Positions 18,338 through 61,812 of a stretch of DNA of 64,000 bases are shown here, in pieces. Below the pieces are notes generated by a model. It had not been told where the DNA came from, made no database searches, and worked only from the letters and a program-made list of their open reading frames with translations. The position numbers and the translations under genes were made by a program. Each line of letters opens with the position of its first letter. Position 1 is the stretch's first letter. The stretch lies in assembly GCF_056746865.1 (NCBI RefSeq), contig NZ_CM163382.1, one strand, 5' to 3'.

Positions 18338-19222
18338 ATGTCTCATTTAAAAGACCCGACCACGCAGTATTACACTGGTGAATATCCCAAACAGAAACAA
18401 CCGACGCCAGGCATCCAGGCGAAGATGACACCGGTACCGGATTGCGGCGAGAAAACCTATGTTGGTAGCGGTCGCCTGAAAGATCGTAAAGCACTGGTGA
18501 CAGGGGGCGATTCCGGAATAGGTCGCGCTGCCGCCATCGCTTACGCGCGTGAAGGGGCTGACGTGGCGATCAGTTATCTTCCCGTGGAAGAAGAAGACGC
18601 TCAGGATGTGAAAAAGATCATTGAAGAATGCGGACGCAAAGCCGTTCTGCTGCCAGGCGATTTAAGCGATGAGAAATTTGCCCGTTCGCTGGTTCACGAA
18701 GCGCACAAGGCGTTAGGCGGGCTGGATATTATGGCGCTGGTCGCCGGGAAACAGGTTGCCATTCCGGATATTGCAGACCTCACCAGCGAACAGTTTCAAA
18801 AGACCTTTGCCATTAACGTTTTCGCGCTGTTCTGGCTAACCCAGGAAGCGATCCCCCTGCTACCGAAAGGTGCAAGTATCATCACCACTTCGTCAATCCA
18901 GGCATACCAGCCAAGTCCGCATTTACTGGACTATGCGGCTACGAAGGCGGCGATTCTGAACTACAGCCGTGGCTTGGCAAAACAGGTCGCGGAGAAAGGT
19001 ATTCGGGTGAATATTGTCGCGCCAGGCCCGATCTGGACAGCACTGCAAATTTCCGGCGGACAAACGCAGGATAAGATCCCGCAGTTTGGTCAGCAAACGC
19101 CGATGAAACGTGCGGGGCAACCGGCGGAACTGGCCCCTGTATATGTTTATCTGGCAAGTCAGGAGTCGAGCTACGTCACCGCAGAAGTGCACGGCGTGTG
19201 CGGCGGCGAGCATTTAGGTTAA
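18338..19222 (+). CDS. yghA: Short-chain dehydrogenase/reductase, NADP-dependent
   Basis: 294 aa; GGDSGIGRA Rossmann motif. Confidence 0.9.
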
Positions 19223-19231
19223 AATAAATAT

Positions 19232-19256
19232 CCTCCGGCATAGCCGGAGGTTTTTC
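19232..19256 (+). terminator. Rho-independent terminator of yghA
   Basis: cctccggcatagccggagg hairpin followed by ttttt. Confidence 0.7.
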
Positions 19257-19257
19257 A

Positions 19258-19935
19258 AATGCGCCTATAAGGCTCTCTTACCAGCCGCGCCCTAACAGGC
19301 GCACACGATCTGACATTTGCATCCAACTTCGTTACTTACGGCCCGTAAACGGGCTGCCCGGATAGGGAATCGATAACTGCTCTCCCATTTTATCCTCTTC
19401 AAGCTGGTGCTTTATGTAATCCTGTATCTTCGCCGTGTTCTTACCCACCGTATCGACGTAGTACCCTCTGCACCAGAACTCCCTGTTCCTGTATTTGAAT
19501 TTCAAATCACCAAACTGCTCGTAAAGCATCAGACTGCTTTTCCCTTTCAGATATCCCATAAAGCCGGATACGCTCATTTTGGGCGGGATCTCCACAAGCA
19601 TATGGATATGATCTGCACAGCATTCAGCTTCCAGAATCCGTACACTTTTCCACTCACACAGCTTTCTCAAAATACTGCCTATTGCTCTACGCTTCTCTCT
19701 GTAGAACACCTGTCTTCGGTATTTTGGCGCAAATACTATGTGATATTTACAGTTCCATCGGGTGTGCGCTAAGCTCTTTTCGTTCCCCATTGGGACCCCC
19801 TTTTGATTTCTTGTTTGACACTTGCAGTTGCCAGACCGCAAGGTGTTTTAACAAATCAAAAGGGGTTTTAATAACTGGCTTAAAGCTGAAAGCTTTCCGG
19901 AACCCCCAGCCTAGCTGGGGGTTTTCTGTGCACAA
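19258..19935 (-). mobile_element. IS200-group insertion sequence (IS200/IS605 family); boundaries approximate, about +/-40 bp
   Basis: Contains a 152-aa IS200 TnpA ORF plus upstream hairpins (cccccagcctagctggggg at 19893-19911) typical of IS200 left end; no terminal inverted repeats, as expected for this family. Confidence 0.7.
19332..19790 (-). CDS. tnpA: IS200 transposase TnpA (Y1 HUH single-strand transposase)
   Basis: 152 aa from ATG at 19790 (MGNEKSLAHTRWNCKYHIVFAPKYRR...); HIH motif and C-terminal catalytic Tyr (GYYVDTVG); near-identical to remembered Salmonella IS200 TnpA. Confidence 0.9.
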   Translation of the reverse strand: MGNEKSLAHTRWNCKYHIVFAPKYRRQVFYREKRRAIGSILRKLCEWKSVRILEAECCADHIHMLVEIPPKMSVSGFMGYLKGKSSLMLYEQFGDLKFKYRNREFWCRGYYVDTVGKNTAKIQDYIKHQLEEDKMGEQLSIPYPGSPFTGRK

Positions 19936-19985
19936 AAATGCCCGGTTGTGAAAAGCAACCGGGCATCATTGTGAATTCACTCTTA

Positions 19986-20195
19986 CCTGATGTGGCGAAA
20001 ACGCCTTATCCGCCTACAAACGCATGAAGATTCAACATGTTGCAATAGATTTTGTAGGCCTGATAAGCGTAGCGCATCAGGCATTGAGCACCTAATGCCG
20101 GATGCGTCGTGAACGCCTTATCCGGCCTACAAACGCACGAAGATTCAACATGTTGCAATAGATTTTGTAGGCCTGATGAGCGTAGCGCATCAGGC
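19986..20195. repeat. Two tandem copies of a roughly 90-bp REP-IHF-REP (RIP/BIME-like) unit downstream of exbD
   Basis: Unit gccttatccgcctacaaacgcatgaagattcaacatgttgcaatagattttgtaggcctgataagcgtagcgcatcaggca repeated with 3-4 mismatches. Confidence 0.75.
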
Positions 20196-20204
20196 AATTC
20201 TACT

Positions 20205-20630
20205 TTACTTCGCTTTGGCGGTTTCTTCGCCGACCAGACCTATCTTCAGGTAACCCGCCTGATGCAGCGTATCCATTACCTTCATCAACGTCTCGTAATC
20301 GACGGTTTTGTCCGCTCGGAAGAAGATGGTGGTGTCTTTCTTGCCTTCGGTTAACGCATTCAACGCCGTAATCATTGTTTCATCGGTGACCGGATCGTTA
20401 CCGATAAACATCGAGTTGTCTGCCTTCACCGACAGATAAACCGGTTTTTCCGGGCGCGGCTGCGGCGTGCTGGTAGAAGCAGGCAAGTTCACCTTCACAT
20501 CTACCGTCGCTAACGGTGCCGCCACCATAAAGATAATCAGCAGAACCAACATCACGTCGATAAACGGCGTCACGTTGATATCATGCATTTCGCCGTTATC
20601 GTCGAGGTTTTCGTTAAGATGCATTGCCAT
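20205..20630 (-). CDS. exbD: TonB-system energiser, biopolymer transport protein ExbD
   Basis: 141 aa. Confidence 0.95.
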   Translation of the reverse strand: MAMHLNENLDDNGEMHDINVTPFIDVMLVLLIIFMVAAPLATVDVKVNLPASTSTPQPRPEKPVYLSVKADNSMFIGNDPVTDETMITALNALTEGKKDTTIFFRADKTVDYETLMKVMDTLHQAGYLKIGLVGEETAKAK

Positions 20631-25905: not shown

Positions 25906-26009
25906 GCTTTTTACGCCTCAAACTTTCGTTTTCGGGCATTTCGTCCAGACTTAAGTTCACAACACCTCACCGGAGCCTGCTCCGGTGAGTTCATATAAAG
26001 GAGGAACGT

Positions 26010-57599: not shown

Positions 57600-57770
57600 C
57601 GTGAGCGGGTCCATGCCCGACAGAATCGTTACTCTCTCCCATCCGGACTCTAACCGTCGGCCCCGGAATTACACCGGATCTGCTGTCCTTTGAGTTCGCA
57701 CCCAAAGCGCTCGCGGGCTTTCAACTGAGTTGATTTACCGCCGGTGGGGAATTTCGCCCCGCCCTGAGAA
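57600..57770 (-). promoter_or_regulatory. FMN riboswitch (RFN element) in the ribB leader
   Basis: Minus-strand leader contains conserved RFN segments gggcggggcgaaattccccaccggcgg ... ccgggg ... ggatgggagag upstream of ribB; boundaries approximate. Confidence 0.8.
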
Positions 57771-57896
57771 TAAGCGGATTCACTATAACGCTAATGATTA
57801 GCGCCAGCAACGCATAGCTTCACATAATTCTGGTTTATGACTTACCCTTATCGCACTACAATGGCACTCAACACCTATCAGTACAGGGAAACTACA

Positions 57897-61211: not shown

Positions 61212-61352
61212 GGGAAAGCCCCTCCCGAAGAAGGGGCCTTATAGAAGGAAAGGGTTATGATGAAGCTCGTCATCATACTGATTGTGTTGTTACTAGTAAG
61301 TTTCCAGGCTTATTAACAACCAATTCAGAGGGGGGAGAAATCCTCCCTTACC
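61212..61352 (-). ncRNA. sibD: Sib antisense sRNA (antitoxin), copy 1; ends approximate
   Basis: Antisense to ibs ORF; minus-strand terminator hairpin gccccttcttcgggaggggc plus T-run at about 61217-61240. Confidence 0.55.
61257..61316 (+). CDS. ibsD: Ibs type I toxin, 19 aa (MMKLVIILIVLLLVSFQAY)
   Basis: Hand-translated; hydrophobic 19-mer typical of Ibs; ggaaaggg SD-like sequence upstream. Confidence 0.7.
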   Translation: MMKLVIILIVLLLVSFQAY

Positions 61353-61588
61353 CTTGTTCCTTTACTTTAGGTTGAAAAAAAATCAGCGTCAAGAAGGTTT
61401 CTCTATCCCACATCCCTGGCCCAAAAAGCCGGGGATTTTTTATATCTGCGTTCCGCTAAAAGGTGCAAATGATCAGGCTGTTGCAGCATTTTGCGTGACG
61501 GCTCGGGGAAGGCAAAACTGCATCAGGGAAAGCATTGCGCGGGGTCTGGCGCTCATCAACAATCGGGGAGTCAGCAAGGGGCTGAAAC

Positions 61589-61729
61589 GGGAAAGCCCCT
61601 CCCGAAGAAGGGGCCTTGTATAAGGAAAGGGTTATGATGAAGCTGGTCATCATACTGATTGTGTTGTTACTCGTAAGTTTCGCAGCTTATTAACAGCCAA
61701 TCAGAGGGGGGAGAAATCCTCCCTCACCC
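61589..61729 (-). ncRNA. sibE: Sib antisense sRNA (antitoxin), copy 2; ends approximate
   Basis: Same architecture as copy 1. Confidence 0.55.
61634..61693 (+). CDS. ibsE: Ibs type I toxin, 19 aa (MMKLVIILIVLLLVSFAAY)
   Basis: Hand-translated; differs from copy 1 by Q17A. Confidence 0.7.
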   Translation: MMKLVIILIVLLLVSFAAY

Positions 61730-61812
61730 TTGTTCCTTTACTTTAGGTTGAAAAAAAAACAGCGTCAATAGGCCTGCCAGGTTCGAAGCGAGATCTGTGA
61801 ACCGCTTTCCGG

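Follow-up and report, generated by a model that had tools for sequence, protein, structure and literature searches.

The window, a stretch of 64,000 nucleotides, includes a region where two transcription units, yghA and exbBD, converge. From left to right this region holds yghA (plus strand), a copy of the insertion sequence IS200C, a strong hairpin, a repeat spanning positions 19986-20196, the exbD stop codon (20207-20205, the gene being on the minus strand) and, next beyond exbD, exbB. Hence, the repeat, which is made of REP sequences, lies within a 3' region common to both units. The exbBD genes are Fur-regulated and energise TonB-dependent uptake. Positions 19700-20500 are 100% identical to strain 118UI, which assigns the DNA to Escherichia coli. 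Similarly, 19934-20300 is 100% identical in K-12 MG1655, and alignment of the intergenic region agrees. The A-run that the IS200C copy entered lies past the yghA stop codon and before the terminator hairpin; the copy contains an Rfam STnc490 match (19800-19923, minus strand, 146 bits). Note that this is a rare and separate insertion, since only 30 genomes cover at least 80% of 19700-20500. Two open reading frames that run through the repeat (63 and 81 amino acids) have no Pfam match and were treated as spurious. The coordinates of all features are listed in Table 1.

Table 1. Features of the yghA-exbD intergenic region, in positions of the window.
Feature	Position	Strand	Description
yghA	18338-19222	+	ORF listing and RefSeq annotation of the identical region in 118UI; convergent neighbour
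IS200C	~19225-19933 (boundaries approximate)	-	tnpA annotated in 118UI, minus strand; outside the BIME
Bidirectional terminator-type hairpin	19931-19973		Inverted repeat with a 12-bp GC-rich stem; common to yghA and exbBD
BIME block, 233 bp	19971-20203		Missing as one piece from the zero-unit allele; right boundary on CTAC (20200-20203)
Unit 1, left palindromic unit	19986-20017	+	Y type, degenerate; 30/35 to the Y REP sequence, 1 gap
Unit 1, tail-to-tail linker	20018-20053	+	L-like, 36 nt; 25/36 columns identical to the L consensus of 40 canonical elements
Unit 1, right palindromic unit	20054-20083	-	Short Z (Z1), inverted; 30/30 to canonical inverted Z, 29/30 to the published short Z REP
Head-to-head linker TTGAGCACCTAATG	20084-20097		Last two bases countable as part of the Y unit also
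Unit 2, left palindromic unit	20096-20130	+	Y type, intact; 33/35 to the Y REP sequence
Unit 2, tail-to-tail linker	20131-20166	+	L-like; 24/36 columns identical to the L consensus; IHF-like core at 20143-20155
Unit 2, right palindromic unit	20167-20196	-	Short Z (Z1), inverted; 29/30 to canonical inverted Z, 28/30 to the short Z REP
exbD	20205-20630	-	ORF listing and RefSeq annotation of the identical region in 118UI; BIME block in its 3'UTR

The repeat belongs to a BIME block that the window shares with K-12 and with about two thirds of E. coli genomes. The Y and short Z REP reference sequences used for Table 1 are those quoted in the methods of PMC11208160. When compared with the canonical consensus instead, the Y units match at 33/35 and 29/35 positions and the Z units at 30/30 and 29/30. 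In the Y unit of unit 1, the third base is T rather than G and the tail has lost 1 nt. In the tail-to-tail linker of unit 1, the IHF-like core ATTCAACATGTTG occupies 20030-20042 and a palindrome, CAACATGTTG, occupies 20033-20042. The linker of unit 2 differs from that of unit 1 by one base. Both linkers contain the IHF-like core ATTCAAnnnnTTG, and no other site in the linkers has one mismatch or fewer to the IHF consensus. An exact match to that consensus was not found in the block. Each of the right Z1 units includes the IS621 target, ATCAGGCCTAC. The naRNA4 model of Rfam derives from the BIME-2 cluster REP325, and the head-to-head linker can be aligned with the linker in that model.

To see what usually accompanies the 'attcaa...ttgc' core, the genome collection was searched with GMARATTCAAYATRTTGC. 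Among the matches listed, there were at least 15 in E. albertii, at least 7 in a genome labelled E. coli and at least 20 in two Pseudocitrobacter genomes. Nearly all other genomes had a single match each among those listed, and most of the non-enterobacterial ones are chance. We took 40 canonical Y-L-Z elements, with full flanks, from E. albertii, the E. coli-like genome and Pseudocitrobacter. Their shared architecture is a left flank CAAAGTGCGCTTTGTTCA, a Y REP, the linker AAAATCnTGCAAATTCAATATATTGCAGAAATCTT, an inverted short Z and a right flank ATnTTGCGTTTGTCATCAGTCTCA. Z is short in 31 of the elements and long in 1, and none of the 40 is arranged in tandem. The single-copy Y-L-Z1 element is the BIME-1 of the literature (PMC3333891). 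These comparisons also settle which form of Z the window contains. Relative to the Z2 hairpin of the Rfam naRNA4 model, the Z units are shorter by 7 nt. The naRNA4 alignment accordingly lacks 7 positions in its second hairpin, and the Z units in the window are therefore not Z2. Furthermore, in the canonical elements it is the short form that accompanies the L linker, and the short form must therefore be Z1. On both grounds, we rejected 'Z2' as a label for the short Z units.

A direct-repeat search returned two pairs of sequences. The first, 20012-20083 and 20125-20196, is 72 nt long and 97% identical, with starts 113 nt apart. The second, 19986-20012 and 20098-20124, is 27 nt long and 81% identical, with starts 112 nt apart. 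In a gapped alignment of 19986-20083 with 20098-20196, 91 of 99 columns are identical and there is one 1-nt indel. The local alignment score of the repeat is 81, and 500 shuffles gave 7.7 +/- 1.3 (maximum 16). The direct repeat is real and far beyond chance. There are 8 differences between the units, 6 of which fall in the degenerate left REP of unit 1. Tandem Repeats Finder, run with a minimum score of 30, reported no array, and the low copy number, about 1.9, is presumably the reason. The original prediction was of a tandem direct duplication after exbD at these positions, and the alignment and its score against shuffles bear this out. The proposed arrangement of REP, IHF-like core and inverted REP, occurring twice, agrees with the alignments of the Y, Z1 and linker parts. 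Likewise, the core attcaacatgttg does appear twice, at 20030-20042 and 20143-20155, with 1 mismatch to WATCAANNNNTTR. Two details require correction. The unit was said to be about 90 bp, and in fact measures 98-99 nt with a period of 112-113 nt. In addition, the copies are not strictly back to back, as had been supposed, because a linker of 12-14 nt (20084-20097) separates them.

The occurrence of the units was followed across 5,426 complete E. coli genomes. Two units or one are found in 3,605 genomes, which cover at least 80% of 19934-20300. Of these, approximately 3,510 have two, as judged by coverage of at least 80% for a query placed across the junction between the units. By difference (3,605 - 3,510), about 95 genomes have one unit. 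Strain EC5 has a one-unit allele in which the left part comes from unit 1 and the right part from unit 2, and at least 40 genomes match it at 100% identity. Such an allele is the product that recombination between the copies would be expected to leave. No three-unit allele was found; a synthetic three-unit query best matched two-unit genomes, split in two pieces. Zero units were present in about 28% of 60 evenly spaced records, including ST131, NC101, APEC O1 and O104:H4, which corresponds to roughly 1,500 genomes. Zero-unit genomes lack a clean block of 233 bp, equivalent to positions 19971-20203 of the window. For example, in the zero-unit strain 2D, the terminator hairpin is followed directly by ...gcatcattTTTAtttcgc, where TTTA is the exbD stop codon. 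The match to this strain covers 334 bp in the record versus 567 bp in the window.

Within the two-unit form, length is constant in all of the two-unit genomes sampled and the sequence is nearly invariant. Single substitutions, each limited to one unit, separate closely related strains. The locus is disrupted in 3 of the 60 sampled records, and also in STEC384, from another sample; overall, a few percent of genomes have IS621 in a Z1 REP. In the three disrupted alleles inspected, IS621 sits within a Z1 unit, between ATCAGGCC and CTAC. The natural target of IS621 is the Z1 insertion site found here (PMC11208160; PMC1525189).

How did two units arise at this site? When the junction was used as a query against zero-unit genomes, there were only partial matches elsewhere in the genome, with no more than 75% coverage and no more than 89% identity. 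Hence, the linker variant, which occurs just twice within the window, is private to the locus. Since this private variant is in both units, the two most probably arose by local duplication of one unit, not by two separate insertions. Strain N96 is informative because it is about 10% diverged across the region, with the two-unit layout and the inter-unit linker the same. Both tail-to-tail linkers are GCAAATTCAATATG in N96 and both are GAAGATTCAACATG in K-12. Thus, the same three linker positions differ in both units, and the positions specified by the IHF consensus are all kept. Within one genome, the units are 91.9% identical to each other in the window and 88.9% in N96. Corresponding units, compared between the window and N96, are 83.8% and 89.9% identical. 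Identity of the units within a genome being equal to or above that between genomes, these values suggest concerted evolution. Briefly, the probable history is as follows. One unit was duplicated locally to give two, homologous recombination between the units has since produced the one-unit allele, and gene conversion has probably kept the two linkers alike.

Transcribed in the exbD direction, the region runs from the stop codon through 9 nt, Z1, a linker, Y, the short linker, Z1, a linker and the degenerate Y to the terminator hairpin. The Z1 of unit 2 begins 8-9 nt past the stop codon, with 20195 as its first stem base. The terminator hairpin has a predicted fold of -26.7 kcal/mol (z -7.0). 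On the exbD strand it is followed by a U-tract, which is U5 in the window and U7 in genomes that lack IS200. Predicted RNA hairpins of the REP units are -15.3 kcal/mol (z -5.2) for Z1 of unit 2, -17.0 kcal/mol (z -4.1) for Y of unit 2 and -13.2 kcal/mol for Z1 of unit 1. The degenerate Y of unit 1 has a weak predicted fold (-9.4 kcal/mol, z -1.8). The whole 3'UTR region of 291 nt is predicted to fold at -117 kcal/mol (z -7.2), which is far beyond shuffled sequence. Note that RNA from the block is also predicted to fold as one long hairpin, centred on the short linker. This is possible because a near-palindromic unit, when repeated directly, forms an inverted repeat as well.

The arrangement in the yghA direction is different. 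On this strand, the sequence after the hairpin is ATCATTGTGAATTC / AUCAUUGUGAAUUC in block-bearing alleles and ATCATTTTTATTT / AUCAUUUUUAUUU in the zero-unit allele. Hence, the block removes the U-tract on the yghA side. Such a loss fits the published extension of yghA transcripts into the REP region (PMC10100675).

The element is already known. It is an ordinary, catalogued E. coli REP/BIME cluster, named REP222 in K-12. Clusters of this type have been described since the 1980s and 1990s. A study from 2023, citing EcoCyc, assigns REP222 to yghA, exbB and exbD, and lists 5 REPs, REPt222a-e (PMC10100675). Our own count of REP units in the block is 4, versus the 5 (a-e) of that study. When ATP was depleted with NaF, all three genes ranked among the 50 transcripts raised most, with log2 fold changes of 2.41 for exbB, 1.87 for exbD and 1.77 for yghA (PMC10100675). 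Northern analysis of yghA, with a probe for the REP region, detected two RNAs, one of about 1000 nt with a half-life of 2.8 min and the other, a decay intermediate, of about 300 nt with a half-life of 6.2 min (PMC10100675). Both RNAs were stabilised by NaF, by inactivation of RNase E in an rne-ts strain and by deletion of the degradosome scaffold (PMC10100675). The original prediction had suggested that the repeat might act as a terminator or mRNA stabiliser, and here it has direct published support, for the same element, from K-12 (PMC10100675). It had also suggested variation in copy number at this locus, as is apparent from the 0-, 1- and 2-unit alleles among the 5,426 genomes.

We consider it probable that the element, REP222, is a locally duplicated BIME-1-like pair that, in the 3'UTRs of both transcription units, impedes RNA decay and aids termination in both directions. 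Transcription from exbD would reach the block after the stop codon and before the intrinsic terminator, and transcription from yghA would reach it past a hairpin that is without its U-tract. Transcribed from either side, the REP hairpins would assist pausing and termination, and would obstruct 3'-to-5' exonucleases. Fragments with REP-containing 3' ends would then persist until cleared by the RNase E degradosome, with its ATP-dependent RhlB helicase. For exbBD mRNA, we infer the same RNA effect, and the effect may also depend on copy number. Note that NaF could raise exbB and exbD through transcription instead of RNA stability. The NaF-raised list also includes fhuF, a Fur-regulated gene (PMC10100675).

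A genome-wide preprint on REPs speaks both for and against this explanation. REPs are described there as combined terminators and stabilisers that act locally, and convergent gene pairs with a REP between them were more highly expressed. However, the half-life of genes having a terminal REP did not differ in general, which counts against the stabiliser reading. Furthermore, since about 28% of the sampled genomes are without the block, any function that it has must be dispensable.

Dispensability is what would be expected if the block had no selected function at all. It would then be a non-autonomous BIME, inserted or amplified by a REP-associated transposase or by recombination, that now drifts, recombines and serves as a landing pad for insertion sequences. 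BIMEs have been proposed to be non-autonomous mobile elements (PMC2817692; PMC3333891), and presence or absence as one clean 233-bp block, with its right end on CTAC, has this character. The one-unit deletion allele, repeated insertion of IS621 in Z1 units and decay of the left Y, which retains 30/35 positions and has a weak predicted hairpin, also point this way. Set against this are the constant length and near invariance of the two-unit form in sampled two-unit genomes. In addition, two units have been kept in N96, a lineage about 10% diverged across the region. The REP region also measurably affects decay intermediates of yghA RNA (PMC10100675). Overall, we regard an absence of selected function as possible, and hold this view only tentatively.

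An action of the block as DNA, rather than as RNA, must also be weighed. The two linkers would provide IHF sites 113 bp apart, between REPs prone to form cruciforms, and would bind IHF, and perhaps gyrase or Pol I. Bound in this way, the DNA would bend and a topological barrier would separate yghA from exbBD, which converge here. Both linkers keep ATTCAAnnnnTTG, and the single mismatch to WATCAANNNNTTR is that of the canonical BIME-1 linker, which is described as often carrying an IHF site (PMC3333891; PMC2817692). Retention of all consensus-specified IHF positions in N96, where the linkers differ from K-12 at three others, is in keeping with this. For these reasons, IHF binding to the diverged linker is plausible. 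Other observations are less favourable. The block has no exact IHF consensus, the linker is only 67-69% identical to the canonical one and its central four bases are CATG, versus the AT-rich TATA. In the literature, gyrase cleavage is enriched in BIME-2 (Y and Z2), and the block has no Z2; gyrase sites also correlate negatively with IHF sites. Absence of the block from about 28% of sampled genomes counts against a DNA-level role too. We think it unlikely that this is what the block does. Note that a role for IHF at the DNA level and a role for the RNA are not mutually exclusive.

A more elaborate version, in which selection itself maintains the pair of bends, seems improbable. Here, gene conversion of the linkers would preserve a selected pair of IHF-type bends, 113 bp apart, that insulates yghA from exbBD. 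If this were so, the 0/1/2-unit polymorphism would tune ExbBD in the different lineages, and through ExbBD also their TonB-dependent uptake of iron and their sensitivity to phages and colicins.

The position of the block after exbD raises a further possibility, that the Z1 hairpin near the stop codon stalls terminating ribosomes, triggering rescue by tmRNA and so reducing ExbD. Liang, Rudd and Deutscher (2015) reportedly described such a mechanism for REPs that lie within 15 nt of a stop codon. Here, Z1 has its first stem base (20195) 9 nt past the stop codon and the predicted hairpin, at -15.3 kcal/mol, is of appreciable strength. Conversely, the zero-unit allele places a stronger hairpin, that of the terminator (-26.7 kcal/mol in the window), 7 nt past the same codon. 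Hence, the block creates no new situation in which a hairpin is near a stop, and we judge ribosome stalling to be very unlikely.

Finally, the head-to-head Z1-linker-Y segment matches Rfam naRNA4 (RF02564; 20057-20127, minus strand, 61.0 bits versus a gathering score of 59.5), the original model of which has Y and Z2 hairpins (PMC4550694), but it is scarcely credible that this segment is processed to a small RNA that binds HU and helps to condense the nucleoid, given that the match is generic to head-to-head REP pairs (44.9 bits on the complementary strand), that another BIME in the window scores 92.6 bits, that the second hairpin is Z1 not Z2, with 7 model positions missing, and that a 2026 preprint reports no measurable chromosome compaction by REP325 and naRNA4, and local 3'UTR action instead.

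As a discovery, the element carries little weight, being both catalogued in K-12 and already used experimentally. The value of the locus is modest, and lies in its clean natural series of 0-, 1- and 2-unit alleles, alongside IS621-disrupted alleles, in the 3'UTRs of exbBD and yghA. This allelic series is suited to testing how REP copy number relates to termination, mRNA decay and expression.

Where does the element belong among known systems? In the published scheme, BIME-1 combines Y, Z1 and L in a single copy, while BIME-2 combines Y, Z2 and S in tandem (PMC3333891). Atypical BIMEs are chimeras, in several copies, of BIME-1 and BIME-2 motifs (Y, Z1, Z2, L, S, s, l, r), and the copy number of tandem BIMEs differs between strains (PMC3333891). 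The closest resemblance of each unit is to BIME-1, also called RIP or RIB. The Y REP, long tail-to-tail linker and inverted Z1 occur in the same order and orientation, and linker length is nearly equal (36 nt here, 35 nt in the canonical element). The IHF-like core ATTCAAnnnnTTGC agrees with the canonical one in register, in strand and in its single mismatch. The differences are in linker sequence, flanks and copy number. Thus, the linker is identical to the canonical one at only 24-25 of 36 columns, with GAAGATTCAACATG here and GCAAATTCAATATA in the canonical form. The canonical outer flank motifs are missing, flank matches being only 9/21 to 13/26 columns. Moreover, the unit is present twice, head to tail, whereas BIME-1 is defined as single copy.

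The similarities to BIME-2, as represented by REP325, the source of naRNA4, are in layout and location. Both have tandem REPs of alternating orientation, and the head-to-head pair here matches Rfam naRNA4. Both also occupy a 3'UTR, and an action as terminator and stabiliser has been shown for REP325. Unlike REP325, the block has Z1 rather than Z2, a long L-type linker of 36 nt rather than the short S, and 4 REPs rather than 12. Gyrase cleavage is reported for BIME-2 and not for the combination of Y and Z1. The doublets known as REPINs, associated with RAYT (TnpA-REP), share with the block an inverted pair of REPs with a spacer, and presence or absence as a clean block. In addition, one block boundary is on CTAC/GTAG, a tetranucleotide reportedly used by TnpA-REP. 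In contrast to such systems, a transposase gene is not nearby and the left boundary of the block is not at GTAG.

The features of an atypical BIME are those that match best. Y, Z1 and the L-like linker are parts of BIME-1, and they stand together with a short head-to-head linker alignable with that of a BIME-2 cluster. As in atypical BIMEs, there is tandem repetition and strain-variable copy number, and the copies at the locus are well conserved. There are only two copies, with no larger allele found, and this does not conflict with the published definition. We conclude, from its sequence, that under the published classification the element is an atypical BIME, comprising two BIME-1-like units.

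Linkers of the two REP units downstream of exbD were compared between strain N96 (record L004, 853-1062) and the window (19986-20196). The same three positions set both N96 linkers apart from both K-12/window linkers (GCAAATTCAATATG vs GAAGATTCAACATG). These shared differences suggest that the tandem units have undergone gene conversion. The left Y unit is intact in N96 and degenerate in the K-12 type.

A second, simpler BIME in the window scores 92.6 bits to Rfam naRNA4 and was used as the comparator for Z type. By this in-window comparison, the Z type of the exbD cluster is shorter than the Z2 of the second element. Note that tandem arrangements of another kind occur in Pseudocitrobacter sp. 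(record L108, ~3491, minus strand; record L114, ~12046). Here, the linker core runs straight into the left-flank motif, after which come a new Y unit and a second linker; the Z unit is absent between linker core and new Y unit. Further coordinates are listed below, together with four further window matches above the Rfam gathering score.

Features of the window and of records from other genomes (L-numbers)
Feature	Record	Position	Remark
Second BIME	Window	8300-8376	Head-to-head Y and long Z (Z2) pair
IS200C	Window	19225-19933	In A-run, yghA stop codon to terminator hairpin
63-aa ORF	Window	20006-20197	Minus strand, through REP units
81-aa ORF	Window	20109-20354	Plus strand, through REP units
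ES173 sRNA	Window	25908-25971	Rfam
FMN riboswitch	Window	57627-57775	Rfam
Sib antitoxin RNA	Window	61242-61392	Rfam
Sib antitoxin RNA	Window	61619-61768	Rfam
IS621 at exbD cluster	L003	800-805	
IS621 at exbD cluster	L007	1329-2500	
IS621 at exbD cluster	L008	2600-2610; 3895-3905	
exbB, thioesterase name	L001	2438-3172	RefSeq (PGAP); same gene in L002-L004, L007-L009

Neither ORF crossing the REP units had any match in Pfam. K-12 locus tags pass from b3003 (yghA) to b3005 (exbD), and this gap suggests an ORF call, formerly in the repeat, that was withdrawn. For exbB, the product WP_000527844.1 is named 'tol-pal system-associated acyl-CoA thioesterase', a name that belongs to YbgC, not ExbB. The K-12 protein is called 'Ton complex subunit ExbB'. 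Hence, the thioesterase name looks like a propagated misannotation.

Insertion of IS200C left the exbBD-side terminator with a U-tract of 5 instead of 7, and is common to only 30 of the 5,426 complete E. coli genomes searched. The 5' region of IS200 gives a 146-bit match to Rfam STnc490, at 19800-19923 on the minus strand. Within this match, a perfect 10-bp hairpin (19901-19923) faces incoming exbBD read-through.

IS621 is a bridge-RNA recombinase IS, and a short Z (Z1) REP of the exbD cluster is its insertion site in several genomes. In STEC384, the allele has two units and IS621 sits in unit 1; the allele that carries it in OkiPb01681 has a single unit. Left of IS621 in strain 120899, hyb genes replace yghA, indicating rearrangement. 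The junctions read ATCAGGCC, IS, CTAC. Both Z1 units of the window contain the target ATCAGGCCTAC (20054-20064 and 20167-20177, minus strand), and the junctions agree with this published natural target of IS621.
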